A stretch of 64,000 nucleotides of DNA, taken from NCBI GenBank assembly GCA_965217775.1, contig CBDCJH010000002.1, positions 2,880,001 through 2,944,000 of the forward strand, written 5' to 3'. The notes beneath the pieces were generated by a model that saw nothing but the letters and a program-made list of their open reading frames with translations, made no database searches and was not told the DNA's origin. The stretch comes from Acidobacteriota bacterium (GTDB lineage: Bacteria; Acidobacteriota; UBA6911; RPQK01; JAJDTT01). Below are positions 16,425 through 52,088 of the stretch, in pieces; positions within the stretch are counted from its first letter, which is position 1; every line of letters begins with the position of its first letter. The position numbers and the translations under genes were made by a program.

Positions 16425-16461
16425 CAGCCCGTGGCAAAAGTCGTCACGGCATTCGACCGTC
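16425..16461 (+). mobile_element. MITE family A, left-end fragment
   Basis: CAGCCCGTGGCAAAAGTCGTCACGGCATTCGACCGTC matches the first 37 nt of the full copies. Confidence 0.85.
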
Positions 16462-16469
16462 ATGGTCCG

Positions 16470-17459
16470 TCACAACAGCTCGAAGATCCGTCCCAGCTCC
16501 GGACGGCCGGCCATTTCCTCGAGCCTGCCCACCAGGTGGCGAAACTCGGCGGGGTTGCGGCAGGAGAAGGAGACCGAGAGCAGATCCCCCTCGAAATAGG
16601 GAGGAACCTGCAAGCGGATCTGGGGTGGAACCTTGAGACCCCCCTTCAACCTGCGGTACCGATCCTGATGACGGGACAAGTGGGGCCGGCGCAATCGATG
16701 GAGACACTCCAGGATCCTGCGAAGACGCAGGGGGCGGACCGTCCGGGCGTCCTCATCCGCTTCCCTGGCGCCCGACGCCTCCCAGACCCGATCCAGCGCC
16801 CCGGACCCGCGTGGCCGCTCGGCGGACCTGAGGTCGTCCAACAGATCGAACAGTTCCCGCTGCCGGTTCCGCCCGGGTTCGTACCGTTCCAGGAGATCGA
16901 GAAACAGCTGGCGCTCCACAGCCGTCCAAGCCGCGAGCCTGAGCGCCGTCGCCGGGTCCAGGGCGCGATGAACGGCACGCTGCAAGGCCTCGTCGAGGCG
17001 CCCGAGGCGGAGGAAGAAGCGGAGACGGTAGCGGCTGGGCGAGGTGTTCAGGAGCGGCAGATAGCGCTCGATGAGTGCCTCTTCCCGGACCTCGAATTGC
17101 TCCCGGAGCTTGACCAGAGCCCGAGCCCGCTCCAGATCGTGAAGCGGACCGGCCGCTTTCTCCGCCAGCGCCCACTCGAAGAGCTGCCAGTCCGACGCCC
17201 GGCTCCAGACCAACGCCGGCGCCGCACGCAAACCGGCCTCCCGAGCCGCCCGGTAGCGGCGGAATCCCATGGCGATTCTCAGATTGCCCGCCGCAGCCGG
17301 CTGCAGGTGCAAGGGGGTCACCACTCCCACGCTCCGGACGGAGGCCGCCAATCGATCCATGGGGAACCAGTCGGGAGTGATGGCCAGGGTCTCATCCGAG
17401 CCGTCGATACGGGCCAGTTCCACAGCTTCCAGGGCGGGAGGCGGCTCCGGAAATATCAT
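16470..17459 (-). CDS. ParB/Srx N-terminal domain protein
   Basis: LAASVRSVGVVTPL and GFRR (GxRR arginine patch) followed by a helical region; start at ATG 17459 or TTG 17471. Confidence 0.75.
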   Translation of the reverse strand: MIFPEPPPALEAVELARIDGSDETLAITPDWFPMDRLAASVRSVGVVTPLHLQPAAAGNLRIAMGFRRYRAAREAGLRAAPALVWSRASDWQLFEWALAEKAAGPLHDLERARALVKLREQFEVREEALIERYLPLLNTSPSRYRLRFFLRLGRLDEALQRAVHRALDPATALRLAAWTAVERQLFLDLLERYEPGRNRQRELFDLLDDLRSAERPRGSGALDRVWEASGAREADEDARTVRPLRLRRILECLHRLRRPHLSRHQDRYRRLKGGLKVPPQIRLQVPPYFEGDLLSVSFSCRNPAEFRHLVGRLEEMAGRPELGRIFELL

Positions 17460-17627
17460 GGCGGGGATCAACCTCGGAAGCGACCGGTCGGCCGGTGTTT
17501 GTTCACGGAAACGACACCCAGGCGGACCGAAGGGAGATTGAACCTGGGACGCGCCTTGTGGTAGTGTCGCTCCTACTTGCTTTGAGCCTAAACCTTATTA
17601 CACTGCATGAGAAGGGTACAGCAATTG

Positions 17628-18626
17628 ATGACATTCAAAGCACGGCGAAAGGGTCTGCGGATCGGATTGGCCTTTGCCCTGACGGCCTTGGTACTGAACC
17701 CCCTGGCGGGACAACAGAAGGTCCCCTACAGCATCCAGGATTATCAGATCTACAAGGCAGCCATCGACGAACCGGATCTGGGTAAACGGGAAAACGCCAT
17801 CGTCGGCTTCATGAAGGCCAAGCCCTCTTCGAAGCTGAGCGAGTATGCCCTGGGCAACTACGTGAAGTTGCTGCAGGAGTACCAGACCAAGGCCAACCAT
17901 CGGAAGGTGGTATCGGCCGGGGAGAAGCTTCTGGCCCTGAAACCGAACGAGCCCAATGCGCTGAGGATGGTGACCTACGCCGCATTCCAGAGCCGGCAGC
18001 TTCAGAAGGCGGCCCAGTACGGCGAAAAATTCTACGCCAAAATGCCGTCGGCCGGACTCGCCTACATTCTGGCCCTTTCCTACGGGACCAAGAATCAGGC
18101 CAAGTACATCTCCTACGGCGAGAAGGCGGTGGCCGGGCTCAAGGCCGCCGAGACCTTCCAGATCGTGGCGGAGCTGACCAATATCTACGTGGGCAAAAAG
18201 CAGTGGAAGAGGGCGTCCGAGTATGGCCGCAAGACCATCAGGGCCTTCTCCGCGATCAAGAAACCGCAGGGCACCTCCCAGGCGGAATGGGACAAATACG
18301 TCAAGCTGCAGACGGCCGTTGCCCACGGCGCCGTGGCTCGTAACGCCGCCGAGTCCAGGAACTGGGGAGGCGCCATCTCCAGCTACAGCCGGGCCCTGCG
18401 CGCCACCTCCTCGCCGGGGCTCAGGGGAGAAGCCTACTTCTATATCGGGATGGGGCGATGGCAGCAGAATCGGATCGATGACGCCATGAAGGCTTTCGCC
18501 CGCGGCTCCGTCCAACGAAGGGCGCCTCATTCCAAGCATTGCCGCAAGCACCTGGAACAGCTCTACAAGTCCACCCACAACGACTCCCTCGCTGGAATCG
18601 AAGAGTTCGTCGAGCGGGTCAACTGA
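17628..18626 (+). CDS. Secreted TPR-like alpha-helical repeat protein
   Basis: Signal peptide (GLAFALTALVLNPLAG-QQ) and TPR-like A/Y/G periodicity; candidate promoter TTGCTT-16-TACACT at 17577-17604; alternative start 17607. Confidence 0.75.
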   Translation: MTFKARRKGLRIGLAFALTALVLNPLAGQQKVPYSIQDYQIYKAAIDEPDLGKRENAIVGFMKAKPSSKLSEYALGNYVKLLQEYQTKANHRKVVSAGEKLLALKPNEPNALRMVTYAAFQSRQLQKAAQYGEKFYAKMPSAGLAYILALSYGTKNQAKYISYGEKAVAGLKAAETFQIVAELTNIYVGKKQWKRASEYGRKTIRAFSAIKKPQGTSQAEWDKYVKLQTAVAHGAVARNAAESRNWGGAISSYSRALRATSSPGLRGEAYFYIGMGRWQQNRIDDAMKAFARGSVQRRAPHSKHCRKHLEQLYKSTHNDSLAGIEEFVERVN

Positions 18627-18658
18627 GTCATCCAGTCTGCCACCGGCAGATTCACCTC

Positions 18659-18697
18659 AAGGGCCGGGAGGGTAAGCCCCTTTCCCGGCCCTTTTTT
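18659..18697 (+). terminator. Rho-independent terminator
   Basis: AAGGGCCGGGA..TCCCGGCCCTT stem followed by a T tract. Confidence 0.8.
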
Positions 18698-18759
18698 CAC
18701 ATCCCCATCCTCGCGTTGTCGCCTGCTCCCGCCCGCGACGCCGTATTCATCCCGGTTCC

Positions 18760-20931
18760 ATGGACGAATATCTCCAAAACCTGAACGACCGGCAGAAGCT
18801 GGCGGTCACGACCACCGAGGGTCCCATGCTCGTGGTGGCCGGCGCCGGAAGCGGAAAAACACGGGTCATCACCTGCAAGGTCGCTCACCTGATCCACCAG
18901 GGGAGATGCCGTCCCTGGGAGATCCTGGGAGTCACCTTCACCAACAAGGCGGCCGAGGAAATGCGTCTTCGGGTGGAGGGCCTGCTGCAGGGCCTGGACT
19001 CGGTCCCGAGTCTGTCGACCTTTCATTCCTTCTGCGTCCGGGTTCTGCGCCGGCATGCCGAACACTTGGGCTACGGCCGGGACTTCGCCATCTGCGACAC
19101 GGATGATCAGAACGCCGTTCTCAAGAAGATCTGCAAGGATGCGGGCGTCAGTTCGCCGGTGCGCAGGATCCGAAGCCTCATCAGCAAAAGGAAAAACCAG
19201 AGCCGGAGACGAGTATACGATTTCCACTACGACTCCGACCCCTACGACCAGGAGGGTGTGGAGCCGGTGATGGCGCGCTATCAGGCGCATCTGGAGAAGT
19301 CCAACGCCATGGACTTCGACGACCTGCTTCTGCTCACGGACAAACTGTTTCGGGAACAGCCCGAAATCCGGGAGGCCTGGTCGGAACGATACCGCTATCT
19401 CCTCATCGACGAATACCAGGACACCAACGCCAGTCAATACGCCCTGGTCCGGCATCTGGCGTCGACCCACGGGAACGTGACCGCCGTGGGTGACGAGGAT
19501 CAGTCCATTTACGCCTTTCGAGGAGCGGACGTCGGCAACATTCTCAGCTTTGAAGAGGATTTCCCCGGCGCCGTCGTGGTCAAGCTGGAGCAGAACTACC
19601 GATCCCGCCAGAGCATCCTGGACGCCGCCATGGCGGTCGTCTCTCACAACTCGGAGAGAAAGCCCAAACGGCTCTGGACCCGGAATCCCCACGGGGAGCC
19701 GGTCGAGGTCCATTCGGCGGAGAGTTCATACGCGGAATCCCGGTTCGTGTGCCGGCGGATCGAACGCTACCTCCAACAGGGCGAGACGGGAGTCGCCGTC
19801 TTGTATCGCATCAATTTTCTGTCCCGTCAGTTCGAGGACACTTTGAACCGCTTCGGGCTCCCTTTCCGTCTGGTAGGAGGTGTGAGCTTCTACAAGCGGA
19901 AGGAGGTACGGGACGCCCTCGCCTACCTGAGGGTCGCCCGCAATCCCAGGGACAACCTGGCGTTGGAGCGAATTATCAATACTCCGCCCAGAGGCATCGG
20001 ACCAAAGAGCCTGGCCCGGCTCCGCCTGGGGGCGGCGCGAAACGGCGACTCGCTCTGGGACGCCGTTCGCCGGGACGCCGATCAGGACGATACTCCCCGG
20101 AGGTTGCGAAACGTCCTGGAACGGTTCGTCGCCCTGGTCGGTCAGTGGCGGCAATGGATCGACCTGGAGCAGTCCCTTCAGGTCGTCCTGGAACAGGTCC
20201 TCCATTCCAGCGGCTATGCCCGGGCGCTGGAAAGAGAAGAATCGGAGGAGGCCAACAACAGGCTGTTGAACCTGCAGGAGCTCCTGGGCGTGGCTCGCGA
20301 CCATTCGGGCTCCGGCCGGAGCCTCCAGGAATTCCTGGACGAAACCGCGCTCCGATCGGAAGCGGACGACTACGACGAGGCGGCCCCGGTCACGCTGATG
20401 ACGCTCCACAACGCCAAGGGACTCGAGTTTCCCATCGTCTTCCTGGTGGGAATGGAGGAAAAGCTGCTGCCCCACACCCGGTCGCTGGCGGAGGGCAACG
20501 TGGAAGAAGAACGGCGACTCTGCTACGTGGGAATGACCCGGGCCCGGAAGCGCCTGATCCTCACCCTGGCCCGCACCCGGAGGATGTGGGGGGGAGATGT
20601 GGAGGAGCGCCGCCAAGCGAGCAGCTTCCTGGCCGAGATCCCCCGGCGCCTGGTGCGATACTCCGGACCGGAGTGGTCTCAGGTCCAGCTCTGGGGGACC
20701 GGTCACTCCCCAGGACGTTCCGGGACCCCGGGCTCCGGGTCCGGACGGACGGCGGGCGTCTCCAGGAGCCGGAGCTTCGCCCCGGGGGTCAGAGTGGAGC
20801 ATCCCGAATACGGGCACGGCACCGTCTTGCAGGTCCAGAAGGTCCGGGACGATCTCAAGTTGACCGTCTCGTTCTCCGGGCGGGGGAAAAAAATGTTCTA
20901 CCAGAGATACGCGAGGGTCAAGCTCCTCTGA
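18760..20931 (+). CDS. pcrA: UvrD/PcrA family ATP-dependent DNA helicase
   Basis: AGAGSGKT, DEYQD, VGDEDQSIY, LEQNYRS, TLHNAKGLEF, EERRLCYVGMTRA. Confidence 0.93.
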   Translation: MDEYLQNLNDRQKLAVTTTEGPMLVVAGAGSGKTRVITCKVAHLIHQGRCRPWEILGVTFTNKAAEEMRLRVEGLLQGLDSVPSLSTFHSFCVRVLRRHAEHLGYGRDFAICDTDDQNAVLKKICKDAGVSSPVRRIRSLISKRKNQSRRRVYDFHYDSDPYDQEGVEPVMARYQAHLEKSNAMDFDDLLLLTDKLFREQPEIREAWSERYRYLLIDEYQDTNASQYALVRHLASTHGNVTAVGDEDQSIYAFRGADVGNILSFEEDFPGAVVVKLEQNYRSRQSILDAAMAVVSHNSERKPKRLWTRNPHGEPVEVHSAESSYAESRFVCRRIERYLQQGETGVAVLYRINFLSRQFEDTLNRFGLPFRLVGGVSFYKRKEVRDALAYLRVARNPRDNLALERIINTPPRGIGPKSLARLRLGAARNGDSLWDAVRRDADQDDTPRRLRNVLERFVALVGQWRQWIDLEQSLQVVLEQVLHSSGYARALEREESEEANNRLLNLQELLGVARDHSGSGRSLQEFLDETALRSEADDYDEAAPVTLMTLHNAKGLEFPIVFLVGMEEKLLPHTRSLAEGNVEEERRLCYVGMTRARKRLILTLARTRRMWGGDVEERRQASSFLAEIPRRLVRYSGPEWSQVQLWGTGHSPGRSGTPGSGSGRTAGVSRSRSFAPGVRVEHPEYGHGTVLQVQKVRDDLKLTVSFSGRGKKMFYQRYARVKLL

Positions 20932-21069
20932 CCGAGCCGGACCGCGAGTCCGGCACCGGCGTCGTACAATCGCCGGTAGAATGTGAACCCCGGCCGGAGA
21001 CCCGGCGTATAACTTTACGAAAGAACAGACCGACGATCACGATTCGAAATCGAGCGGAGGATAGAAAGC

Positions 21070-22701: not shown

Positions 22702-22735
22702 GGACAATCTCCAACCCTGGTGAGGGCTCGCTCTA

Positions 22736-24673: not shown

Positions 24674-24811
24674 CTAGCCCGCATTTCTCACCAGGCCGCT
24701 ATGTGTATGATGAAAAATATCTTTCTCATAGGCATTTACGCAATTTTTCCCAACGTCGCTCCGGAACCGACTGCGCTGGGCGCGCGCTCGCTGGTGAGAA
24801 ATGCGGGCTAG
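24674..24811 (-). mobile_element. MITE family B, short copy (130-bp core flanked by CTAG), inverted
   Basis: Perfect TIRs CTAGCCCGCATTTCTCACCAG / CTGGTGAGAAATGCGGGCTAG; the reverse complement aligns to the 5098 copy minus its hairpin. Confidence 0.88.
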
Positions 24812-25591: not shown

Positions 25592-28500
25592 ATGAAACAG
25601 GACGGTTTTCTCGATCCTTACCAGCCCGTGGCAAAAGTCGTCACGGCATTCGACCGGCCCTGCATCCCGGCGGACTGCGTTGCTATCGGCTCACATACTC
25701 CCGGTATGCTCCCTCATCGCGCCTGGTCCGGCGGGCGCAGGACCGGTCTCGGTGCTCGCGGGACTTTCACCACGGACTGTTACGAAATTCTGCCCGCCGA
25801 CCATGAGGGCGGAAGACGAAAGGAAGTCCGGTCCGGAGAGCCGATCGCCATCGTGGGCATGGCCTGCCGGTTCCCCGGCGCGAGGAACCTGGCGGCCTTC
25901 TGGCGTTTGCTCGAAGCTGGCCGGAACGCCGTTATCGAAGGTATTCCCGGATCCGGCGCCGGGCGTGTGGGTGAACTCTTTCCGGATCCCTCGGTTCAGA
26001 GCGTGGCCTGCCGGTTCGGTGCCTACCTCGATGGAATCGACCGGTTCGACGCTCGGTTTTTCCGTATCTCGCCAGTCGAGGCACAACTGCTGGATCCTCA
26101 ACAGCGGCTGATGTTGGAGACCAGTTGGCAGGCCCTCGAGGATGCGGGAATCGATCCTGAACGTCTCAAGGGCAGCCGTACGGGAGTGTACGCCGGGATC
26201 AGCAACTACGACTATCGGGCGCTGATCCTGGACTCGGGTAAGTGTACCGAGCCTGCCAAAAGCCTCTATTCCGTAACGGGGACGTCGTTCAACACCGCCA
26301 TCGGGCGGGTGGCCTTCGTGCTGGGACTTGGGGGACCGGCATTGGCGTTGGATACTGCCTGCTCTTCATCTCTGGTCGCCATCCACCAAGCGGTGTCGGG
26401 CCTGCAGCGGGGAGAGTCCGACCTGGCGCTCGCGGGAGGCGTGCACGCGATCCTGTCCGGCCGGCTGCTGGAACTGCGTGCGAATGCCGGGATGCTTTCT
26501 CCGGATGGACGGTGCGCGACCTTTGATGCTGCAGCGAACGGGTACGTGCGGGGGGAAGGCTGCGGAATCCTGGTCCTCAAGCGGCTCAGCCAGGCGGAAG
26601 CGGACGGCGACCGAATCTGGGCCGTGATCCGCGGCGCGGCGGTGAACCAGGACGGGGCGACCCCGGGACTGACCGTTCCAAACCAGGCGGCGCAGACACA
26701 GGTTATCAAGGAGGCACTCTTTCGGGCGGGGGTCCGACCGGCGGAAGTGGACTACGTCGAAGCGCACGGTACGGGGACCGAGGTGGGCGACCCCATCGAG
26801 TTGCGTTCCACGGCGGCGGCGTACGCCAGGGGACGCCAAGCGGACCATCCGCTTCTGATCGGGTCGGTGAAGACGAATATCGGCCATCTGGAGCCCGCGG
26901 CGGGGGTCGCCGGCGTGATCAAGGTCGCACTCTCCATGAAGCACCGCGCAATTCCACGGCATTTGCACTTCCGAAACCCGACTCCGCAGGTGGACTGGGA
27001 CCGGCTGTGTCTGCGGGTGACTTCGGCACCGATGGAGTGGCCGTTCCATTCCGATCGCCCATTGAGGGCAGGCGTCAGCGGGTTCGGATGGTCGGGCACC
27101 AACGCCCATGTGGTGGTGGAGGGATACGAAGCGGCGAACGGGGCCGACGCCGGCCTGGACCTGAGGCGGCGGCCTCTGGGTTCGCCGAGGCCAATCGCCG
27201 TTTCACTGCCGGAGAGAATCCCGGAGCCGGCACTGGCCGGGAAAGGGCTTGCCCGGCGAAAGACACGTCTCCTGCCACTCTCGGCCAAGTCGGACAAGGC
27301 GCTTCGCCAACTGGCGGAGCGGTATCTGAGTTGGCTCGGCGAGCATCCCGGTGATCCGCTGCTGTGGGACATGGCGTGGACGGCGGGAGTGGGGCGCAGT
27401 CATTTCAGACATCGGGCAGGCGTGGTGTTCCGGGATGCCGGGTCGCTGAGGGAAGGCCTGAGGGGGATCGTAGAGCCGGAGGGTGGCTCGGGAACGGATC
27501 CGGGACCGGAGGCGGTCGCCAAGGTGGCGTTCGCATACGCGGGACAGGCCAGCCAGTGGGTCGGAATGGGGGAATCACTCTACCGGAGCGAGCCGGTGGT
27601 GCGGGCCGTTCTGGACCGGTGTGAGGAGGTGTTTCGGGAGGAGAGAGGGGCTTCGCTCCTGGATGTGATGTTCGGCCGGGGCGAATGCGCCGGGGATCTC
27701 GACGATCCGGCGTGGACCCAGCCGTCCATCTATGCGCTGGAGTGCGCGCTGACTGCGCTCTGGTCGAGCGTCGGCATTCGGCCGAGCGTCGTGGTCGGCC
27801 ACAGCCTGGGAGAGTTGGCGGCGGCCCAGGCGGCGGGGGTGTTCAGCCTCGAGGACGGGTTGCGGTTCGCCGCGTCCCGCGGGTTGCTGATGGCCAACCT
27901 CCCTGGCGGGGGGGCCATGGGAGCGATCTTCGCCCCGGCCTCCCGCGTGGCGGCAACGGTCGAGGAGATGAACGCGTCGTCCCGGGACTCGAGCCTCAGC
28001 GTGGCCGCGGACAACGGGGCGCATCAGGCGGTAAGCGGACCGGCGGCGGACGTCGAGTCCATTCTGGAGCGCTTCGAGAGAGAAGGGGTGCGGGTACGGC
28101 GGTTGAGGAAGAGCCCCGCCTACCACAGCGCTCTGGTCGAGCCGGCGCTGGACGACCTGGAAGCGGCGCTTGCCGGTGTCGCCATCGCGCCGCCCTCCCT
28201 GACCTTTGTCAGCACTCTGACCGGCCGGTCCGTCGGCCCCGGCACGGCCCTCGACGGAGCGTACTGGCGCCGCCAGACGGGAGAGCCGGTCGCCTTCCGT
28301 AGCGCAGTGGCGACGCTCGCCCAATTGGGGGTGGAGGCCATAGTGGAAGTTGGACCTCATGCCGTGCTGGGTCCGATGGTGGTTCTGGCTTGGCCCGAGT
28401 CGGCCGACTCTGGCGGTTCTCCGGCCGTGCTTTCGAGCCTCAGGCGTCCGGGCCGCCATGTTTCGGAGGAAGAGGCCGGGGACGCGTTCGTCGCGGCGGT

Positions 28501-31500
28501 GGCACAAGTTTACGAGACGGGTCTGCCGATCTCTTTTCCGGGGCTTTTCGCCGGGGAGTCCCGGCGCCGGATCTCGCTGCCGGGATACCCGTTCCAGCGC
28601 GAAAGCCACTGGATCAGGGCCCCGAAGCGGCGCCGGCTTGCCGCAGGTCATCCCTTGCTCGGCACCCGGCACGAATCCGCAAGTGGGGAGATCTCATTCG
28701 AAACGGAAGTGTTCCCCTCAGACCCGGCGTGGCTGGATGATCACCGGGTATTCGGCCGGCTCCTGGCGCCGGGTGCGCTCTACGGCGCCATGGGGGCGGC
28801 AGCATCCGTGGCCGAGGGCCCCGGATTGCAGGTATTGGAGGACATGCAGTTGCGCAATCCCCTCGTTTTCCCAGAGGGGAATTCCGAGGAGGGCAGTGGT
28901 GACGGAGGCCGGAAATTGCAGCTCCTGGTCGACGCCTCCGGTGACGAGCCGTCGCGCCGTGTCCGGATTCTCAGCCGAGGAGACGCCGGAGAGGAATGGA
29001 CGCTGCATGCGGAGGGCCGGATCTCGCCCCTGTCCCGTGAACCGAAAGTCGCGCCGCGCCTGGACCCGGAGGATCTCAAAGCTGGCCTGTCGTCCCGGGA
29101 CGTGGCGGCAATCTACCGCTCCAAGGCCAGCGTGGGGATCGATCTCGGCCCACAGTTTCGAACCCTGAAGGCGGTCTGGTCCCGGGCAGGCGAGGCATTG
29201 GGCGAGGTCGCGATCCTGAACGCGCCGGACGGGAACGGGTCGGACATCCATCCGCTTCTGCTCGACGGTTGCTTTCAGGTCATGTCGGCGGCGCGGGGTC
29301 CTGAGGGGACCGGGGACGGGGCCACGTATCTTCCATTCGCGTGGGACCGGCTGTGGTTGACGGGGCGCCTTCCGGAGCGCGTCGTCTGCCATGCACGCAT
29401 GAGGGAAAACTCGCCGGACCGGGCACCGGATTCGAATACCGCCGAGCCGCCAGAGATCCTGACCGGAGATCTCCGGATCTACGATCCAAGCGGGGTCCTG
29501 CTGGGAGGTTTGAACGGGTACACGGTGAAGCGGGCGACACGGGCAGCGCTGCTCTCGGCGGTGGAAGGTTTGCAGGAGCTGCTCTACGAGATTGTGTGGC
29601 CGGAACGAGCCCTTGCGCCGGGCCTGCCGGTTGCGGATTTCCTCCCGAGTCCGGCAACCGTTGCGGCACCCTCAAGACTGTTCTCCCAGTATCTCGCAGC
29701 CGAAGGAGTCGGATCCGAAGACAGGGACTCCATGCTGGAAGACCTGGAGCGGTTGTCCCGGTCTTACGCACTCTCGACCCTGGACAGGCTGGGCTGGGAA
29801 CGGAGGGCAGGGGTGTCCGCAGACTCCGAGGACTTGCGCCGGCGCCTGCGGGTTATCGGAGATCACGGGCGCCTTTTCCGCCGGATACTTGAAATGCTGG
29901 CCCAGGCGGGCGTGCTGGAGGAGGTGGGAGACGGTTTCGTGGTGGTGGTGGGATCCGGGGATCCCCTGCCGGAAGGAATGGGCGATCCCGAGGAGTCTGC
30001 GATCCGGATCGCCAGGTTGTACCCGCACGGATCGAACGAGATCGGACTCCTTCGGCGGTGTGCCTCCGCTCTGGCGGAGGTGCTTCGCGGTCGCGCCGAC
30101 CCGCTGGCGCTTCTATTCGGCGGCGGCGAACCGAGTGCCGCCGATCTGTATCTGAAGGCGCCGGTGGCACGTGCGGGGAACCGGATGCTCGGGGACGCGG
30201 TTCGGGCGCTCGTGGCTGCGTTGCCGGCGGAACGGAGGCTGCGGGTGGTGGAGGTCGGAGCGGGTACCGGCTCGGCGACCACTTCCGTTCTGCCGGAGCT
30301 TCCTTCCGGACGGTTCGACTATACGTATACCGACATCACGGCGGGCTTCTTCGCCAAAGCCGAGACGCGTTTCGGGGACGCTGACGGGGCCATCGAATAC
30401 CGGGTGCTGGACCTCGAGAAGGATCCGGCGGCGCAGGGCTTCGACTGGCACGGCTATGACCTGCTGATCGCTTCCAACGTGCTGCATGCGACGCGGGACC
30501 TCCAGGAGACTCTGACGCACTGTCGAAGGCTTCTGGCGCCATCGGGGCAGCTCTTGGCGCTGGAGAATCTGCGTGCTCAGGGCTGGCTGGATCTGACGTT
30601 CGGACAATTGGACGGATGGTGGCGATTCGCCGACAGCTACCGCCCGCATCATGCCGTGGCGGGCCCCGCGGTTTGGCGCCAGGCTCTCGGGGACACGGGA
30701 TTCGGCGAGGTCGGGATCCTGGGAGTGGACGAGTCGGAATCGGCCGGAATGCCCGACCGGGGGGTGATCGTGGCGCGGGGACCGGCGGAGGTGGACGAGC
30801 CGCAAGGCGCCTGGATTCTGGCGGCGGACGAAGGTGGCGCCGCGGCCGGGTTGGCAGCGGAACTTGCGGCCCGCAAGCAGAGGGTCGTCTTGGCAAGCCG
30901 GTATGCGCCGGCGGTCAGGGGACGCGCGGAGAACGGTTCCGGGATAGTCGGCACCAAGGTGGAGATGGAGCGGCGCGAATCGTGGCGATCGCTCGTGAAC
31001 GATCTGCCGGACGATGTGCCCCTCGGCGGCGTGGTGCATCTTGCGGCCCTGGACGGCCATGGCCCCGGGGCGACGTCCGCGGAAATGGCGGAGGATTCGA
31101 GGCGGGCGGCGGAGACCGCGCTGGCGCTGGTGCAGGGCGTCGCCGACTCCGATGTGATCCCCGGGAAGGGCGTTTGGTTGGTCACGCGCGGCGCGCAGGT
31201 CCTGGAGCGCGAACGTACCGGGGAGCTTGCCGGCGCGCTGCTCTGGGGCTTCGGCAAGGTGGTGGCCCGGGAAGCGCCCCAGTTGCAGCCGAGGATGATC
31301 GACCTCGACCCCGAATCGGCGGCGCTCCCATCCCGCCTCGCCGATGAGCTGCTCCATCCCGACCCTGAGACTCATATCGCGTACCGTGGGGATTTTCGCC
31401 GGGTGGCCCGGCTGGTTCGGGCCGGGGCCGGGGCGGAGCGGCTGTCCCTGCCGCAAGGGACCGGCTGGCGGCTGGAACCCGACCCGGGCGGCGCGCTCAA

Positions 31501-34500
31501 GCGACTGCGCGTGGCGCCGAAGCCGGCGCGTCCGCTGGAGCCGCGAGAGGTTCGCGTCGCCGTCGAGGCGACCGGGCTCAACTTCAGGGATGTGCTCCGC
31601 TCCATCGGTTTGATCGACAAGGGGCTTCTGGGCCGCGAGATGTCCGGCCACATTCTGGAAGTGGGTTCCGGCGTGTCGAACGTGGCGGTGGGCGACCGCG
31701 TGGTCGGATTGGGCTTCGGCACCTTCGGGCCCGAAGTGGTCACGCGGGAGGAGCTGGTGGCGCCCGCGCCGCCGGGGGTAGCGGCCGCGGCGCTCGCGAC
31801 GTTGCCGACCGCGTTCGTAACTGCCGCGCTGTCTTACGAACTTGCCGGATTGAAGTCCGGCGAACGGGTCTTGATTCATTCCGGCGCGGGGGGCGTGGGG
31901 TTGGCGGCGATCCAGTTGGCAGGCGCCGCGGGAGCGCCGGTCTTCACGACCGCGAGTGCTTCCAAGTGGGACTATCTCCGGTCGCTGGGCGTGGAGCACG
32001 TGTTCGACAGCCGTCGGACGGCCTTCGGCGGGGAAATCCTCGAAGCCACGGCCGGAGCCGGCGTCGATGTGGTGTTGAACAGCCTGACGGGAGAGGGCTT
32101 CATCGACGCGAGCCTCTCCTGCCTGGCGCAAGGCGGCCGGTTCGTGGAGTTGGCCCGGCGGGACATCCTGAGCGAGGAGGAAATGGCGGCGGTGCGTCCC
32201 GACGTGTCCTACTCCATCCTCGATCTGGACGGCTTGAAGAAGCGCGAACCGGCAAGGCCGGGAGCGGCCCTGAAACGCGTGATGGGTCAGTTGGCGGCGG
32301 GAGAGGTGACACCGCTTCGCCTCGTCCGGTGGCCGCTGTCCGAAGCGCGAGCCGCCATGAGATTCATGCGCGCTGCCCGGCACCTGGGAAAGATCGTCTT
32401 GACCACTTCGCCGCTCGCCCGGGGCCGGTTGAGGGACGACCGGACCTATCTGGTGACCGGCGGTCTGGGCGGGATCGGTTGCGCCTTGGCCGAATGGCTC
32501 ACCGACCGGGGAGCGGGAGCGATCGTTTTGAACGGTCGGCGGCCGCCGGACGAGGGCGCGGAGAAAGTGATCGGCGCCCTCAGGAACCGAGGAGCGACGG
32601 TGCGGGTGGAGCTCGCGGATGTGACGGACGCCGGCGCCGTAGAGGAAATGCTGGCGCGAATGGATCGGGAGCTGCCTCCCCTCGGGGGCGTGATCCACAG
32701 CGTGGGCGTGCTGTCGGATCAGTCGCTCGGGAACCAGAGTTGGGACCGGTTCGAGCAAGTGCTCCGGCCCAAGGTAATGGGCGCATGGCATCTGCACCGG
32801 GCGACCCTGGACCGGGATCCGGACCTGTTCGTCCTCTTCTCCAGCGTCGCCGGCGTTCTGGGCAATCCGGGCCAGGCGAACCATTCGGCGGCCAACGCAT
32901 TCCTCGATCAACTCGCCGGCCATCGCCGGGCGTTGGGGCTCCCCGGACAGGCTATCGCCTGGGGAGCGTGGTCGGGGCTGGGTGAAGCCGAGGAACACCG
33001 GGAGCGGATCGCCCGCCAGTTGGAGGCATCGGGAACCGGCTGGATCAGCCCGCAGCAGGGTCTGCGGGCATTCGAGCGCCTGGTACGCGACGACGTCACG
33101 GCAGCCCTGGTGGCGGCGGTGGACTGGCCGGTTTACGGACAAGCCGTCGACGGGCGCCCGCCACTGCTGGAGGACCTGCTGTCCGATGTCGCGGAAACGG
33201 GGGCCGACTCGCCGGCTTTGGCCGGCGGCCTCATTTCCCGGCTGCGGAAGGCGCCGCCGGCAGCGCGCGAGGAGCTGCTGGTGTCCTTCCTGCGGCAGGA
33301 AGTACAGGCGGTGCTCAGGCTCCCGGCGTCGCCGGCGCCGACGGCGGCATTCTCCGATCTCGGGATGGACTCGCTGATGGCGGTGGAGCTGAGGAACCGG
33401 CTGAGCCGGGCGTTCTCCGGGGAGTACGCGGCGCCCAACACCATCGTGTTCGATTACCCGGACATTTCCGGACTCGCCGGCCATCTGGCCGTGGAACTTG
33501 GCCTGGCAGCCCGTGGCAAACGTCGTCACGGCATTCGACCGTCCCTGCTGGCCGGTCGCGAGGAAGCCCCACCGGCTCAACCCGAGCCGGAGCCCCGGGC
33601 CGCGGTGCAGAGCAAGGACGACGGTATCGCGATTGTGGGCATGGCCTGCCGGTTCCCTGGCGCCCCGGACCTTCCCGCCTTTTGGCGGCAACTCGAAGCG
33701 GGCGTGGACGCAGTGACCGACGGCCGCCAGGATTCGGGGCCCTGGTCCGGCGTCGCCGGAGATCCCGAGTCTCCGGATGCGGCGTCGCGGCGGGGTGGAT
33801 TCGTCGAGGACATCGACCGTTTCGACTCGAGGTTCTTCCGAATCGCGCCGATCGAGGCGCGGATGATGGATCCGCGGCAGCGGCTATTGCTGGAGACGAC
33901 TTGGCACGCGCTGGAAGACGCGGGTATCGATCCCGAAGGGTTGAAGGGAAGCCGCACCAGCGTATATGTCGGAGTGGGTAACGGAGACTACCGGGATCTG
34001 GCCACGGCCAGTGGCGAGGCTCACGGGTATCTCGGCACCTCCATGAGCGTGGCCGCCGGGCGGATCGCCTTCGTATTGGGACTCGCCGGCCCGGCAGTAC
34101 CACTGGACTTGGGGTGTGCTTCGTCCCTGGTGGCGGCCCATCAGGCCGCTGGCGCCTTGCAACAGAAGGAAACGGATCTGGCTCTCGTTGGCGGCGTCAA
34201 CGCGGTTCTTTCGCCCGCGGTCACGACATTCATGCGGGAGTCCGGGATGCTCTCGGAGAGCGGCAGGTGCCGGACCTTCGACGCCGGGGCCGACGGATTC
34301 GTCCGGGGTGAGGGTTGCGGCATGATCGTTCTGAAGCGGTTGAGCGAAGCAACGGCCGCCGGGGATCGAATCTGGGGCGTGATCCGTGGATCGGCCGTGA
34401 ACCAGAATGGGCCGAGCGCGGGATTGATCATCCCGAACGGGCCGGCTCAGGAACGGGTGATCGAGGAAGCGCTGTCGCGGGCGGGAGTCTCGCCGGCTGC

Positions 34501-36217
34501 GGTGGATTACCTGGAGGCGCATGGAGGCGGTTCGAATCTGGGTGATCCGATCGAGGTCCTGGCAGCGGCAGCCGTCTACGGCAGGGGACGGGAAGCGGAA
34601 CGTCCTCTGCTGCTGGGTTCGGTAAAAACGAACATCGGCCATCTGGAGTGCGCGGCGGGGATTGCCAGCCTGATCAAGGTCGTGCTCGCCATGAACCACG
34701 GTGTCATTCCGAGACATCTTCATTTCCGCGACCCGACCCCGCACCTGGACTGGGACCAACTCCCGGTGCGAGTGACGTCCCAGGCGACGGCTTGGCCGCT
34801 TGGTGCCGATCGGAGACCGCGCGCGGGAGTGAGTTCGTTCGGCCTCTCGGGAATCAACGCGCACCTCCTGGTGGAGGGTCACGGCAGGCCGGATGGCGAC
34901 TCTGCCACACTCGACGAAGAACGCGTTCCCGTAGGTCCCGCTCGGACCGTTGCCGTTTCCCGGCCGGCGCCGGCGGTGGACCTGCCTCCTTCAACCGGCG
35001 ATCCGGCTCCTCGCTCCAAACGGATCCTGCCCCTCTCCGGCAAGTCGGACCTGGCGCTCCGGGACCTGTCGAAGCGGTACCTCGCTTGGCTCGAACAGCG
35101 CGCCGGCGAGTTCTCTTCCGATCCCGCCGTACCGGATCCAGTGCTTTCGGACGCGGCTTGGACGGCCGGCGTGGGACGGAGCCACTTCCAGCACCGGGCC
35201 GGTATCGTATTTCAGGATTCCAGGTCGTTGCGGGACGGGCTGATGGCGCTCCCGGAGATCGATGCAGGGACGGAACCTGACACGGTGCCGAGGGTGGCCT
35301 TCGCCTACGCCGGATGGAGCAGCCAGTGGTTCGGGATGGGAAGGAATCTTTACGAGAGCGAGCCGGTGGTCCGCGCCGTATTGGATCGCTGCGACTCGTT
35401 GCTCCGGGAGGTAAGAAGAGGAGGTTCGTTGCTGGGCGTCCTGTTCGGCCGAACGGCCGCCGGCGGGGATTTCACCGACCCGATATGGGCGGAACCAGCG
35501 GTCTACGCACTGGAATGTGCGCTCACCGCGTTGTGGTCCAGCGTGGGGATCCGGCCCAGCATCGTGGCAGGGGCCGGTATCGGCGAGTTGGCGGCGGCCC
35601 AGGCGGCTGCGGTTTTCAGCTTGGAGGAGGGACTCCGGTTGGCGGCGGAGCGGGGCTCGGTGACGGCGGAGTTGCGGCGAGAGGGGCGAGCAGCGTCGCC
35701 GGTGGATGGTCCGGACGCGGCCTTTCGAGAATTCACGTTTGCGCCGCCGTCGCTCGTCCTGGTCAGCGGTGCGACAGGCCGTGCCGTGGAGTCGGCCGAC
35801 CTGACGGACCACGCCTATTGGCGCCGGCAGGCACAGGAACCGGCGGGTCTCGGCCCCTGCGGCGGGACGCTGGCGAACCTTGGAGCCGAGGTGGTGGTGG
35901 AGATCAGTCCCGACGCCGTGCTGGCGCCGACTGGAGTCCGGTCTGGGGCCGGTTCGGACGGTGGACCCGAGTCGACCCGTGCGCCGGTGGTGCTCCGGAG
36001 CCTGCGGCGCCCGTCCGGAACCGAGGCCGCGGCGGAGTTTGACGACGGCTTCGTAGAGGCCGTCGCGGGAGCTTACGAGGCGGGTCTACCGGTAGCCTTC
36101 GCCGGACTCTTCGCGGGCGAGGTGCGGCGCCGGGTTTCCCTGCCGATCTATCCGTTCCAACGCCGGCGCCACTGGTTCAAAACGCCGGTGCGGGCTGCAT
36201 CCGGCTCCGGACATTGA
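25592..36217 (+). CDS. supA: Type I polyketide synthase, SupA-type (KS-AT-DH-MT-ER-KR-ACP-KS-AT*)
   Basis: KS1 DTACSSS/HGTGT/NIGH; AT GHSLG and AYHS; [12 protein letters not shown]; MT EVGAGTG; [10 protein letters not shown]; KR GGLGGIG; ACP LGMDSL; KS2 DLGCASS; degenerate AT2. The domain order and downstream free ACP match the sponge-symbiont sup cluster. Confidence 0.9.
25618..25783 (+). mobile_element. MITE family A, full copy inserted in frame in the PKS N-terminus
   Basis: 158-bp core 25622-25779 with imperfect TIRs CAGCCCGTGGCAAAAGTC / GACTTTCACCACGGACTG, flanked by direct repeat TTAC. Confidence 0.92.
33503..33551 (+). mobile_element. MITE family A, internally deleted copy in frame in the PKS ACP-KS2 linker
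   Basis: 41-bp core 33507-33547 (CAG...CTG) flanked by direct repeat CTGG; net +45 nt. Confidence 0.85.
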
Positions 36218-36689: not shown

Positions 36690-36990
36690 TTGCCGGCAGG
36701 GAAGCTTCCCCCCTTGTTTCTGAAGCTCCGGACATTCAAGGAAGCTCTGATCAAGGCTCTAGCAGCCCGTGGCAAAAGTCATCACGGCATTCGGCCGTCC
36801 CTGCATCCCGGCGGACGGCGTTGCGATTCGGGCACATACTCCCGGTATGCACCCGAATCGCGCCTTGTCCGGCGGGCGCAGGAACGGTCTCGGTGCTCGC
36901 GGGACTTTCACCACGGACTGCTAGGCGTGGGCTTTTCTTTGGATGTCTCCCGTTTCCAGATCCGGTCGGCCTTACGCCGGGGTATGACGA
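36690..36990 (+). pseudogene. Remnant of an Sfp-type phosphopantetheinyl transferase (SupC-like), interrupted by a MITE
   Basis: Removing the MITE gives FLKLRTFKEALIKALGVGFSLDVSRF, matching the FxxxWTxKEAxxKAxGxG motif with W to R; N- and C-terminal parts missing; boundaries approximate. Confidence 0.75.
36759..36924 (+). mobile_element. MITE family A, full copy
   Basis: 158-bp core 36763-36920 flanked by direct repeat CTAG. Confidence 0.92.
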
Positions 36991-38984: not shown

Positions 38985-38991
38985 CCCCCGG

Positions 38992-45376: not shown

Positions 45377-45377
45377 C

Positions 45378-46815: not shown

Positions 46816-46828
46816 ACTGCCGCAACCC

Positions 46829-46879
46829 AGTCTATTTGCGGCGCTACGACTTGTCAAAAACAAGTCTCTATGTTAGGCT
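46829..46879. promoter_or_regulatory. Overlapping divergent sigma70 promoters
   Basis: Minus strand: TTGACA(46857-52)-17-TAGACT(46834-29). Plus strand: TTGTCA(46851-56)-17-TAGGCT(46874-79) with TGn. Confidence 0.6.
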
Positions 46880-46980
46880 TTTCGAGACAGCACTTTAGGA
46901 GATTCTACTCTCCCCTTTATTGGTTCCTTTCATTTCAACCACAGTAAGTAGAGCAAGACTCAGCCTAGGATGAGGTCACC

Positions 46981-47313: not shown

Positions 47314-47314
47314 G

Positions 47315-47959: not shown

Positions 47960-48017
47960 CGGTGTCCCCGGACTCGGACCGATGCTGCGAGACAGCGAAC
48001 CACCAATACCTGACGAT

Positions 48018-49508
48018 TCATGAATCCGGATAGCGTGACGCCAGCTCAACCATGGTTCGCACACCGAAGCCGGTAGGCCCCTGGTTGGCGCCTCCCTCCT
48101 GAAACATGTCCACCCCGGCCATGTCGATGTGGCACCAGGGCGTATCACCGACGAATTCCTGGAGAAACTTGGCCGCCGTGACAGCGCCGGCCGCCCGCTT
48201 GCCCACGTTTTTGATGTCGGCAATGTGGCTGTCCAGGAGAGTCCGGTACTCGTCGTCCAGGGGAAGCCGCCAGAACTTTTCCCCGGCCCTTTCCGAGGCC
48301 TTGAAGAAGCTCTCCGCCAGCCGGTCATCATTGGAAAACAGCCCGGCCCGGACGTGTCCCAGCGCGATCACGCAGGCACCCGTGAGCGTGGCGATGTCCA
48401 CCATGCAAGCCGGTTTCAAACGCCGGGCAAAGTGCATGGCATCGGCCAGAATCAGCCGGCCCTCCGCGTCCGTGTTGAGAACCTCGATAGTCTTGCCGGA
48501 CATGGAGCGAACCACGTCGCCGGGACGCTGAGCCCGGCCGCCGGGCATGTTTTCGACTGCCGGAAGAATGCCCACCACGTTCTTGCGCAACCGCAGTTGG
48601 GAAACGGCCTTCATGGCGGCCAGAACGGCGCAGGCGCCAGCCTTGTCCGCTTTCATCTCCTCCATACCCTGGGAGGTCTTCAGGGAGAGCCCCCCGCTGT
48701 CGAAGGTCACCCCCTTGCCGATCAGCACCACCGGCGGGGCGCCGCTATCCTCGGCTCCGAGGTGCTTCAAGACGATCATCCTGGCCGGCTCGTCACTCCC
48801 CCGAGCCACGGCCAAGAGAGCCCCCATGCCCTCGTCCTCCATGGCCGGCTCATCCAGGATCTCGATCCGGAGATCCGACTTCTCCGCAATGGAGCGGGCC
48901 TTCTCGGCCAGCCGCGAGGGATTGACCCTGTTCCCGGGCTGATTGACCAGGGACCGGGCCAGATTGGTAGCCTCCCCCAGAATCTGCCCGCGATTCAAGC
49001 CCTCCTGCAACTCGGTCGTCCGCGCCGGGTCGCCGGAGCAGAATAGCGCCTGGCCGATTTTGGTCCGGCTTCGATCCCGAGTCTTGTATTCGTCCGGTTC
49101 ATAGCACCCGATGACCAGGCCCTCGGCACACGCCTGGATCGAGAGGGCGGAATCCAATGCATCCCAGCCTGCAACGGCAATGCGTTCGACTTCGGAGCCT
49201 CGAAAATTGCGCACCACCTGAACCATCCGATCGCGAAGACGGGCGCCGTCGCAATCGCCGCGTCTCCCGGCTCCCAGCAGAACCAGACGGCGCGCCGAGA
49301 CCTCCGCGGGCCTGTGAATCACCAGGATGTCACCATTGCCCCCCGTCCACTCTCCGCTGGCGGTCAACTCCGCCAGCAGGCCATCCAGGCGTTCATCCGC
49401 CGACCGGATCAGCCGGCCGGACTCCTCCTCCTGATGGAGAATCAGCACTACGGCATCGCAGTCCAGGCGATGCCAACTCGAATCGACCACACCAAATTCC
49501 ATGCTCAT
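48018..49508 (-). CDS. pepA: Leucyl aminopeptidase (M17)
   Basis: GKGVTFDSGGLSLK, MKADKAG, NTDAEGRL, ATLTGA, WCHIDMAG. Confidence 0.95.
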   Translation of the reverse strand: MSMEFGVVDSSWHRLDCDAVVLILHQEEESGRLIRSADERLDGLLAELTASGEWTGGNGDILVIHRPAEVSARRLVLLGAGRRGDCDGARLRDRMVQVVRNFRGSEVERIAVAGWDALDSALSIQACAEGLVIGCYEPDEYKTRDRSRTKIGQALFCSGDPARTTELQEGLNRGQILGEATNLARSLVNQPGNRVNPSRLAEKARSIAEKSDLRIEILDEPAMEDEGMGALLAVARGSDEPARMIVLKHLGAEDSGAPPVVLIGKGVTFDSGGLSLKTSQGMEEMKADKAGACAVLAAMKAVSQLRLRKNVVGILPAVENMPGGRAQRPGDVVRSMSGKTIEVLNTDAEGRLILADAMHFARRLKPACMVDIATLTGACVIALGHVRAGLFSNDDRLAESFFKASERAGEKFWRLPLDDEYRTLLDSHIADIKNVGKRAAGAVTAAKFLQEFVGDTPWCHIDMAGVDMFQEGGANQGPTGFGVRTMVELASRYPDS

Positions 49509-49966
49509 CGACGCTTCAACTCCTGTGCTATGTCCCGGTCGACGGCGCGGCGGCGGGCCGCCTCCCGTTTATCGTAGAGCCGTTTCCCCCGAGCGACTCC
49601 CAACTCGACCTTGGCCCGTCCTCTCTCGAAATAGAGAGCCAGAGGGATCAGGGTGAGCCCCTTGTTGGCGACGGCGCCCGTCAACCGGTTGATCTCTCTG
49701 CGGTGCAGCAACAGCTTTCGGGGTCTCAAAGGTTCGTGGTTGGCCAAATTGCCATGACGGTAGGGTCCGATGTGGCAATTCTCCAACCACACCTCGCCGT
49801 TCCTGACCCTGGCGTAGCTGTCGGAAAGGCTGACCTGATGGTCGCGGATCGCCTTGATCTCGGTCCCCAGCAACACCAGTCCGGCTTGGTACCTCTCCCG
49901 GATCTCATAGTTGTGGAAGGCCTTCTTGTTTCTGGCCACCGCACTGTTCGTCACCGATTCCTCCAA
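49505..49966 (-). CDS. smpB: SsrA-binding protein
   Basis: NKKAFHNY, AGLVLLGTEIKAIR, RKLLLHRREI, GKRLYDKR. Confidence 0.97.
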   Translation of the reverse strand: MEESVTNSAVARNKKAFHNYEIRERYQAGLVLLGTEIKAIRDHQVSLSDSYARVRNGEVWLENCHIGPYRHGNLANHEPLRPRKLLLHRREINRLTGAVANKGLTLIPLALYFERGRAKVELGVARGKRLYDKREAARRRAVDRDIAQELKRR

Positions 49967-49976
49967 CCGCGCGATA

Positions 49977-51002
49977 CTACAGGCTGGACAGCGTCCGGTC
50001 CCGATTTCCGTAGACCTTGCGGTAGTAGCGCCGGTAGTCTCCGCTGCGAACCCCGTCCACCCACTGGGGATGATCCCGGTACCACCGCACCGTCTCGTCC
50101 AACCCTTCCTCGAAGGGAATCCGGGGAGACCATCCCAACTCCAGCCGCAGACGACTGCTGTCGACAGCGTATCTCCGATCGTGGGCCGGCCGGTCGGCCA
50201 CGAAGGAGATCAGGTCCTCAGACTTTCCCAGGATATCAAGGATACGGCGCGCCACTTCCAGATTGGTCCGTTCTCCATCAGCTCCGATGTTGTAGACAGC
50301 CCCGTCTCGGCCCTCGAGCAATATCGCCTCCAGGGCGCGGCAATGGTCCAGGACATGGATCCAGTCCCGGGTATACAGACCGTCTCCGTACAAGGGGAGG
50401 GGTTCATCGTCCAGCGCGTTGGAGGCCATCAGGGGAATCAGCTTCTCCGGAAACTGATAGGGACCATAGTTGTTCCCGCAACGCGTCGTAACGACGCCCA
50501 GACCGTAGGTGCGATGGTAGGCCCTGGCCAAGAGGTCGGCGGCCGCCTTGCTGGCGGCATAGGGACTGTTGGGCGCCAGTGGAGAATCCTCCGTGAACTT
50601 TCCGCCGCCGGACAGCGACCCGTAAACCTCATCGGTGGAAACCTGGATGAAACGGGAAATCCCCTTGCGCCGGGCCGTCTCCAACAGATTCTGGGTTCCC
50701 AGTACGTTGGTTCGGACAAATGCGGAAGCATCCAGAATGCTCCGGTCCACATGGCTTTCGGCGGCAAAGTGGACAACGGCGTCGATTCCGGGATCCAGGG
50801 CCCCGGCTACCTGTTCCCAGGAGGCAATGTCGCCCCGGATGAACCGGTAGTTGTCGCCGGCCTCCAGACCGGCCAGGTTCTGCAGATTCCCGGCGTAGGT
50901 GAGGAGATCGAAGTTGACGACCTGAAAGCCGCGGCGACTCAAAATGTGGCGGATGAAATTCGAGCCGATGAAGCCTGCGCCACCGGTGACCAACAATTTC
51001 AT
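49977..51002 (-). CDS. rmlB: dTDP-glucose 4,6-dehydratase
   Basis: GGAGFIG, AAESHVDRSI, STDEVYG, YAASKA, NNYGPYQFPEK; start moved to ATG at 51002. Confidence 0.95.
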   Translation of the reverse strand: MKLLVTGGAGFIGSNFIRHILSRRGFQVVNFDLLTYAGNLQNLAGLEAGDNYRFIRGDIASWEQVAGALDPGIDAVVHFAAESHVDRSILDASAFVRTNVLGTQNLLETARRKGISRFIQVSTDEVYGSLSGGGKFTEDSPLAPNSPYAASKAAADLLARAYHRTYGLGVVTTRCGNNYGPYQFPEKLIPLMASNALDDEPLPLYGDGLYTRDWIHVLDHCRALEAILLEGRDGAVYNIGADGERTNLEVARRILDILGKSEDLISFVADRPAHDRRYAVDSSRLRLELGWSPRIPFEEGLDETVRWYRDHPQWVDGVRSGDYRRYYRKVYGNRDRTLSSL

Positions 51003-51140
51003 CTGAAGCCACCCCTTGCTGCATGAGGGCGCCAAATCCCGATCGTGTCCCCGGGCTCGGTGCCGGCCCGCATTTCCTGGCAGGTCATTCGGGAGTTTCT
51101 ACACGGGATGTCAAGGATTGGCGAGCATCTCGACTTTTAG

Positions 51141-51299
51141 CAGCCCGTGGCAAAAGTCCTCGCGGCATTCGACCGTCCCTGCATCGTGCGCGGACTGCGT
51201 TGCTATCGGCTCACATACTCCCGGTATGCGCCCTCATCGCGCCTGGTCCGGCGGGCGCAGGAACGGTCTCGGTGCTCGCGGGACTTTCACCACGGACTG
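51141..51299 (+). mobile_element. MITE family A, full copy (159 bp) overlapping the 3' end of rmlA
   Basis: Near-identical to 25622-25779; flanks TTAG/CCAG (imperfect duplication). Confidence 0.92.
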
Positions 51300-52032
51300 C
51301 CAGGTGCGCCAAGTCTCCAGCACCCGCCGCCACCAGGTTCGCGGCCCGCATCAGGGACTCGATGGTTCCCGCGTCCGTCCACCAGCCGTCGATGACATTG
51401 TACGTCAACTCGTTCGACTCGAGGTATCGGTTGTTGACGTCCGTAATCTCCAGTTCGCCCCTGGCGGAGGGAGAGAGGGTATCGATGATGTCGAAGACGC
51501 GGCTGTCGTACATGTAAACTCCCGTCACGGCATACGGAGAGGCAGGCCTGGACGGCTTCTCGGTGATGCGTACGACTCGGTCGCCATTCAACTCCGGCAC
51601 ACCGAAACGTTGGGGATCGGACACTTTCTTCAAGAGGATCTTGGCGCCCCGCCCCTGCCGGAGAAAGCTTCGAACGAACGGCGCGATGGATTTTTCAAGA
51701 AGATTGTCGCCCAGCACGACACAGATCAGGTCGTCTCCGGCGAAATGCCGGGCCAGAGAGAGCGCGTCCGCGATTCCTCCCTCTCCCTCCTGATAGCCGA
51801 AGTGGATCTGTCTGAGGCCAAACTCCTGGCCGCTGCCCAGCAGGCGGAGAAAGTCACCCGCGTTGTTGCCCCCGGTCACCAGCATGATCTCGTCGATGCC
51901 GGCTTCGACCAGCATTTCCAGCGGATAGTAGATCATGGGCTTGTTGTAGACCGGCAACAGATGCTTGTTGGTCACCTTGGTGAGGGGCCACAATCTGCTG
52001 CCCAGTCCACCTGCGAGAATGACTCCCTTCAT
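51211..52032 (-). CDS. rmlA: Glucose-1-phosphate thymidylyltransferase (short form); last 29 aa encoded by the MITE
   Basis: GVILAGGLGSRL, KHLLPVYNKPMIYYP, LGDN, EKP, RGELEITD, WTDAGT. Confidence 0.9.
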   Translation of the reverse strand: MKGVILAGGLGSRLWPLTKVTNKHLLPVYNKPMIYYPLEMLVEAGIDEIMLVTGGNNAGDFLRLLGSGQEFGLRQIHFGYQEGEGGIADALSLARHFAGDDLICVVLGDNLLEKSIAPFVRSFLRQGRGAKILLKKVSDPQRFGVPELNGDRVVRITEKPSRPASPYAVTGVYMYDSRVFDIIDTLSPSARGELEITDVNNRYLESNELTYNVIDGWWTDAGTIESLMRAANLVAAGAGDLAHLAVRGESPASTETVPAPAGPGAMRAHTGSM

Positions 52033-52059
52033 GGTCTTCCAAATCCCGGCTCATCTTAC

Positions 52060-52088
52060 CAGCCCGTGGAAAAAGTCGTCAGGGACTG
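52060..52088 (+). mobile_element. MITE family A, minimal 29-bp remnant with both ends
   Basis: CAGCCCGTGGAAAAAGTCGTCA-GGGACTG; flanks TTAC/CTAA; abuts the glycosyltransferase stop. Confidence 0.7.

Follow-up and report, generated by a model that had tools for sequence, protein, structure and literature searches.

Introduction

[quoted passage not shown] According to sections of PMC10969869 and PMC2229807, nearly half of the RPEs lie in ORFs, each with a conserved peptide, and the RPE insert in gmk is translated in an enzyme that is active. ERIC, YPAL/RU-2 (168 bp), the 107-bp Correia element, and BRE also fuse with ORFs, internally or at gene ends (portions of PMC2229807 and PMC3184786), and whether MITE fusions are transient or lasting is a question that section 15 of PMC3184786 leaves open. 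The targeting of repetitive extragenic palindromic sequences by IS110 insertion sequences (ISs) is established for ISPpu9 and IS621 (portions of PMC12288879 and PMC3184786). Here we analyze a 158-bp MITE in the genome of an uncultured acidobacterium (G000), of which six copies had been noticed in one stretch of 64,000 nucleotides (the window, G000:C2:2880001-2944000); a preliminary description had likened it to the RPEs and held that it is shaped to be tolerated inside ORFs. Our analysis indicates that the repeat is a real MITE with an IS1182-like DDE partner and that its frame neutrality is most likely a structural by-product.

As far as the cited sections go, the likeness to RPEs lies in a palindrome of about 150 bp with a long stem-loop that is found in frame within unrelated protein genes; here, however, only 17 of 214 copies (8%) read through an ORF, five frames are in use without a common peptide, and the inserts are known at the DNA level, whereas the transposase partner and the target duplication are identified. 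The MITE thus lacks two features that define RPEs, a large share in ORFs (about half) and one conserved peptide. The closest match in behavior, by the same partial accounts, is with ERIC, YPAL, Correia, and BRE, which are mostly intergenic rods with terminal inverted repeats and open frames; theirs are mostly TA duplications, whereas this family has 4-bp duplications, an IS1182-like enzyme, a fixed-length superfamily, and exchangeable ends. With the IS1182/IS5 superfamily, represented by the partner IS, it has in common ends of 16–20 nt and 4-bp duplications, and the partner has DUF772 plus DDE domains. As with ISPpu9 and IS621, in what those sections report, a bridge-RNA IS110 sits at one fixed dinucleotide of a dispersed palindromic repeat, but the target here is itself a mobile MITE whose last-amplified variant lacks the target.

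Results

A non-autonomous element and its partner IS

A BLASTN census against the whole genome yielded 214 full copies, which are 158 bp long in 149 cases, 159 bp in 35, 160 bp in 20, and of other lengths in 10. The 4-bp target duplication is TA-centered and exact in 154 of the 214, and a net gain of 162 nt (158 + 4) is valid for 149. The 158-bp core with a 4-bp duplication, as first described from the window, therefore describes most copies, but the copy at 51141 has 159 bp and a mismatched duplication, and the CTGG duplication flanks a remnant. The 10-nt ends are near-invariant (190/214 and 187/214 copies) and form a terminal helix.

No transposase is encoded within the 158 bp, and an autonomous partner with the same ends was found. 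Three copies of this partner IS (1475–1476 bp) have MITE-like ends and exact 4-bp duplications; two are frameshifted, and the intact one (G000:C2:2325898-2327373, 1476 bp) encodes a 452-aa ORF and has 20 terminal nt identical to the MITE. Both ends were present in 9 of 17 partner loci examined, with exact duplications in 6 of these 9, and homologues occur in 7 of 8 congeners. The transposase matched DUF772 (PF05598), PF13751, and the DDE domain PF01609, all at or above the Pfam cut-offs, an architecture typical of IS1182 and IS5. The best NCBIfam model was NF033551 (IS1182) at 171 bits, under its cut-off of 270, and the IS5_4 model scored 80 bits against a cut-off of 140, so that membership in the IS1182 family is not established. 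Acidic motifs lie near residues 149, 239, 287, and 349, which we take to be the catalytic residues. The match between MITE and partner is limited to the termini, so the MITE interior is not partner-derived; the right end of the MITE carries a TGA that the partner ends lack. Common ends, common targets, and 46 identical MITE copies point to mobilization in trans by this partner, in agreement with the earlier proposal of a non-autonomous element served by an IS5/IS1182-like DDE enzyme. The two frameshifted partner copies are identical, in the same orientation, and about 5 kb apart (G000:C2:310455-311929 and 316892-318366), possibly forming a composite transposon.

The MITE is present in all eight congeners and in none of six searched genomes of the family's other genus, and records sharing its 5′ end have mostly Acidobacteriota titles. 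The window had no Rfam match at the gathering score (best E 1.4, with only chance matches up to E 5), and a plasmid collection did not match the MITE. Its 15-nt core, searched on either strand, was in no paper found, supplements and subscription-only papers being outside reach. Three tandem head-to-tail pairs have a single target copy in common (G000:C2:483865/484029, 2174457/2174619, and 4957274/4957436), which indicates that the target was regenerated and used again for insertion. The window also contains copies (about 5100-5342, 24675-24809, and 60908-61039) of another MITE family, which has other inverted ends and CTAG flanks; this family has 55 BLAST matches in the genome, and one copy is nested within a copy of the 158-bp family at C2:1332961.

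Length and fold are conserved among sister elements

The top strand is free of stops in the consensus and in 182 of 214 copies, as the preliminary description had observed. Its estimate of three to four stops by chance was overstated: 3.6 are expected by mononucleotide shuffling but 1.6 by dinucleotide shuffling, with probabilities of a stop-free strand of 0.017 and 0.14, respectively, and a strand that is stop-free in either orientation has P = 0.12 among GC-matched intergenic windows. The fold of the whole core as one rod was borne out, with z of −5.5 for the top and −7.6 for the bottom strand, and the bottom strand folds better in 143 of 145 distinct copies.

We then searched for sisters with an 18-nt core pattern and general ends, since requiring CAG ends misses most families. 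More than 120 metagenome loci carry the pattern; among 400 genomes of the phylum from beyond the genus, a single one carries it. We examined 125 loci; an extended core and enough flank were present in 78, and 32 of these were distinct with confident ends, the other 46 being duplicates or uncertain. A further 17 loci in viral contigs were chance-like, had no MITE flanks, and were left out. The superfamily (L235-L354, L378, L392) has the same core with about ten terminal repeats, sits mostly at CTAG, and in some members has an extra hairpin of about 40 nt.

Exactly 158 bp was the length of 23 of the 32 sisters; six others fall within 156–159 bp (deviations 156, 157, and 159), three have an extra 39–43 nt, and none has 155 or 161 bp. 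The ends are only 38–40% alike, whereas the core flanks are 84–87% alike. On the bottom strand, both bases change in 35 of 50 pairs across 31 sequences, a number matched by 0 of 500 shuffles, and slid controls lower the paired share to 31–43%. Selection of the sequences favored the terminal helix, and the search pattern fixed the apex, but 15 of 24 pairs of the internal helices covary as well. By contrast, a stop-free top strand was observed in 4 of 32 sisters against 4.3 expected from shuffles, and the mean number of open frames was 2.66 of 6 against 2.39 expected. Given the 158-bp lengths, the covariation, and the chance-level frame counts, what is conserved is the length and the fold, not the open frames. 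As a speculation, 158 bp would correspond to 15 helical turns.

Full copies are depleted from genes

Weighted by the observed target sequences, about 55% of sites would lie in genes, whereas 22 of the 214 full copies are intragenic. This set comprises 23 ORF-spanned copies, minus three (one in a weak ORF and two whose gene start is probably after the MITE), plus two split genes. Seventeen read through and five truncate the gene; when young copies were placed at random within genes in a simulation, 66% of the insertions read through, and 17 of 22 is therefore no clear excess over what the MITE's own frames predict. Top-strand frames 0, 1, and 2 are used four, six, and three times and bottom-strand frames 0 and 2 twice each, and with five frames in use no single conserved peptide exists among the 17 inserts. 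These counts, like the sisters that retain length and not open frames, speak against the view of an element shaped to be tolerated in ORFs.

In seven further copies, the 3′ end of a gene runs into an antisense MITE, and the target duplication contains the stop codon of a gene in 36 of 214, against 3.4% expected. Intragenic copies are younger at two of three thresholds (13/81 vs. 9/133, p = 0.037; 18/120 vs. 4/94, p = 0.012), and of 60 decayed partial copies only one is in a called gene. In the congeners, 4 of 67 full flanked copies were intragenic by a flank score, three of them in frame; the same score gives 11 of 214 in G000.

Copies in the window and their host genes

The elements of the window and their host genes, including a polyketide synthase (PKS) gene, are as follows.

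16425..16461, plus strand: 37-nt 5′ remnant of the MITE, right end lost; intergenic, flanked by two minus-strand genes
25592..36217, plus strand: PKS host gene (Pfam), type I, 3541 aa, intact ORF with two in-frame MITE inserts
25618..25783, plus strand: full MITE (25622-25779, 158 bp) with TTAC/TTAC; element frame 0 in the PKS
33503..33551, plus strand: MITE remnant (33507-33547, 41 nt) with CTGG/CTGG; element frame 2 in the PKS
36759..36924, plus strand: full MITE (36763-36920, 158 bp) with CTAG/CTAG; no conserved gene
51137..51303, plus strand: MITE (51141-51299, 159 bp) with TTAG/CCAG; antisense to the nucleotidyl-transferase gene
51211..52032, minus strand: NTP transferase host gene, terminating on the MITE bottom-strand TGA
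52056..52092, plus strand: collapsed MITE (52060-52088, 29 nt); abuts the stop codon of a glycosyltransferase gene

All six starts first reported are present, but only the copies at 25622, 36763, and 51141 are full length, the other three being remnant or collapsed. Likewise, of three sense insertions into coding sequence in two frames, two are real, both in the PKS and in frames 0 and 2; the third, which from a quoted peptide was probably the copy at 36763, is not in a real gene. The congener G007 is syntenic with G000 and about 95% identical to it. The site of the 16425 remnant is empty in G007 and G006, for a net gain of 29 nt.

The PKS has KS, AT, DH, MT, ER, KR, and ACP domains followed by a second KS and AT (Pfam), and its ratio of nonsynonymous to synonymous substitution rates (dN/dS) is 0.24 on its own branch against 0.20 in G007. 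Most of the length of this iterative-type gene is kept in 7 of 8 congeners, G006 matching only the first ~390 bp of the query, and we take the enzyme to resemble the SupA type of sponge symbionts. The copy at 25622 adds 54 codons after codon 10, N-terminal to the KS domain; since G007 and G006 have a single TTAC and the identical upstream ATG, the insert amounts to exactly 54 extra codons. At 33507, the remnant and one CTGG give the ACP-KS linker 15 codons at a site empty in G007, and its structure would fit a 117-nt deletion between short direct repeats.

The copy at 36763 lies in a non-homologous patch that has taken the place of a gene's 5′ part, the gene being present in G007; the ORFs over it had no Pfam match and were not called as genes. 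Because it has 159 bp and a mismatched duplication, the copy at 51141 is not frame-neutral: it replaces the last 8 residues of the nucleotidyl-transferase with 31 and supplies the stop, at a site empty in G007 and G006. The site at 52060 holds a full-length MITE in G006 and is collapsed in both G000 and G007, which shows collapse in place.

Fate of in-frame inserts

We compared 15 of the 17 read-through inserts with relatives (those at 3462910 and 6125275 were left out) and found empty homologous sites for 13, as expected of a mobile element by the preliminary description; for the hosts at C2:1057607 (0 of 8 congeners) and C2:5281584, orthologues were not found. Three of the 13 orthologue-checked hosts, a sulfatase, an amine oxidase, and one unnamed gene, are damaged elsewhere. 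Host branch dN/dS was 0.04–0.26; such values mix the time before and the time after insertion and are not proof of function.

In a sugar-binding lipoprotein gene, the MITE follows codon 5 in G000 and G007, and three other congeners are empty; the G000 insert has since lost 9 nt with the frame kept, and its dating is weakened because the gene body looks recombined. In an lspA-lolA ORF (L029:400-1830; G000:C2:5934900-5936330), the MITE forms a C-terminal tail that is also present in G006 and decayed in G005. A signal peptidase II domain and a LolA domain are both encoded in this one ORF, whose counterparts in congeners are open frames of similar length.

A search with the end motif located a 29+4-nt remnant that contributes 11 residues to trpF (L412:885-1508; G000:C2:4777885-4778508), the genome's only trpF, in an intact trp operon. 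The remnant is also in G007 and absent from five other congeners examined, and in comparison with 1LBM, a solved PRAI structure, it shows as a gap of 11 residues. In the AlphaFold2 prediction for TrpF, the barrel is intact and the remnant forms a loop of lower confidence that joins its last two elements (mean predicted local distance difference test score, 90.8). Two observations weigh against retained function: the trpF of G007 has three deletions of one base each, which may be errors of assembly, and the G000 branch has a dN/dS of 0.27–0.70, noisy owing to small counts.

A protein search with one MITE frame returned 47 proteins among 71 candidates, 13 of them with internal inserts. Three clusters that we checked contain many filled alleles and one also has empty alleles; two alleles are frameshifted inside a C-terminal insert. 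That the peptide-bearing proteins are singletons was ruled out, the inserts being common to cluster members. Two sponge-metagenome RNA runs contain short pieces close to the PKS. In four runs, with all copies summed, the RNA runs did not exceed the other two in read depth over the MITE relative to the PKS; among the pieces listed from contigs of these runs, none bridges an insert junction, and they are no evidence on expression.

IS110 at the MITE apex

IS110 copies interrupt the MITE in two genomes.

G000:C2:1656641, 3134898, 5760220, and 6039615 (L013, L035, L014, L015): IS110 copies in G000
L191, L200, and L209: IS110 copies in G007

All four copies in G000 and the three examined in G007 lie at the same CT of the MITE apex (7/7). 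Two loops are predicted in the non-coding, bridge-RNA-like left end; their guides, read by eye, match 6 and 7 nt of the target and also match the donor ends. Close IS110 relatives in G003, G001, and G008 are inserted at other sequences. Among the MITE core variants, CA accounts for 87 copies, 63 with an identical twin, and CT for 106 copies, 18 with a twin; the newest and most amplified variant is thus without the IS110 target. The rise of CA may be read as escape from IS110, as better stem pairing, or as the gain of a fifth open frame.

Elsewhere in the genome, several giant ORFs of 3300–6200 aa have a C-terminal segment in common (G000:C2:24096-48021 and 2527443-2619717).

Discussion

The frame neutrality of this MITE is most likely a by-product that is filtered by purifying selection. 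An IS1182-like DDE transposase would recognize the shared ends, insert the 158-bp rod at TA-centered tetranucleotides, and duplicate 4 bp, while length and fold would be kept because the strand-specific rod, common to the wide superfamily, is structurally constrained. About two thirds of gene insertions keep the frame because 158 + 4 is a multiple of three and stops are rare in DNA that is GC-rich and TA-poor. Selection would then remove most intragenic insertions; survivors would be intergenic, abut duplicated stop codons, lie in dispensable or decaying genes, or fall at termini, linkers, and loops, and the few inserts that persist may be trimmed in frame to 11–15 residues. Peptide writing is real at the DNA level, but probably as a by-product and not as the purpose of the MITE.

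Several observations weigh against this by-product reading. In the most amplified variant (46 identical copies), five of six frames are open, a state that 2% of dinucleotide shuffles reach and 4% of the GC-matched intergenic windows show; collapse most often leaves 29+4 nt, likewise a frame-neutral product; and the net length is a multiple of three in 25 of 32 sisters. The same is true of all 22 intragenic copies, a result confounded with age and with selection of the set. Some inserts are common to several species or many assemblies. At the loosest threshold, the age difference loses significance (18/142 vs. 4/72, p = 0.15), and the gene calls came from our own codon-model caller (4721 genes, 84% coding).

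These points bear on a rival in which lineage-level selection made the MITE harmless in ORFs, by keeping a net length of 54 codons, purging stops, and letting tolerated variants out-replicate the others. It would account for the net gain of 162 nt seen with 149 of 214 copies and with 23 of 32 sisters, for the five open frames of the dominant young variant, for the inserts retained in the PKS, the sugar-binding lipoprotein, lspA-lolA, and trpF, and for the filled alleles common in three database clusters. We nevertheless consider such shaping unlikely: open frames in the sisters are at chance level, length is pinned at 158 bp rather than moving to 155 or 161, about 90% of copies are outside ORFs and decayed partials hardly ever persist in called genes, the right end bears a TGA without counterpart in the partner IS, and the change that opened the fifth frame also improves stem pairing. 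Poorer still are the prospects of a host-useful structured RNA module (3′ processing, stabilization, or termination) with selected placement at gene ends and coding inserts as noise, which would suit the strand-specific covarying rod, the core that stays alike across unrelated ends, and the enrichment at stop codons, but which is improbable given that orientation to the upstream gene is unbiased (51 copies sense and 42 antisense; at stop codons, 17 and 19), sites are mostly species-specific, Rfam has no match, and target tetranucleotide plus survival explain the stop-codon placement.

With the by-product reading preferred, in-frame fusions of this kind add to those already known, and what the family offers is an identified enzyme and closed genomes with filled and empty alleles, with inserts that range from full length to 11-residue remnants. 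Since enzyme, alleles, and insert stages are all available, the question of transient versus lasting fusions becomes testable here. A warning also follows, in that gene callers will place MITE peptides in protein databases, as the 47 matches to one frame illustrate. More surprising is that the length stays fixed at 158 bp although the ends are unrelated, and that an IS110 is aimed at the apex. It is conceivable, if doubtful, that the rod of 158 bp represents a structured module, widespread but so far undescribed, whose transposase-binding ends can be exchanged, that its length is partly held by frame, and that in this genus the last variant to sweep did so because it opened a fifth frame and escaped an RNA-guided IS110 that parasitizes its apex. 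If so, an IS1182-like enzyme, a MITE, and a bridge recombinase would be engaged in a three-level arms race that leaves lasting loops and tails in proteins such as TrpF.

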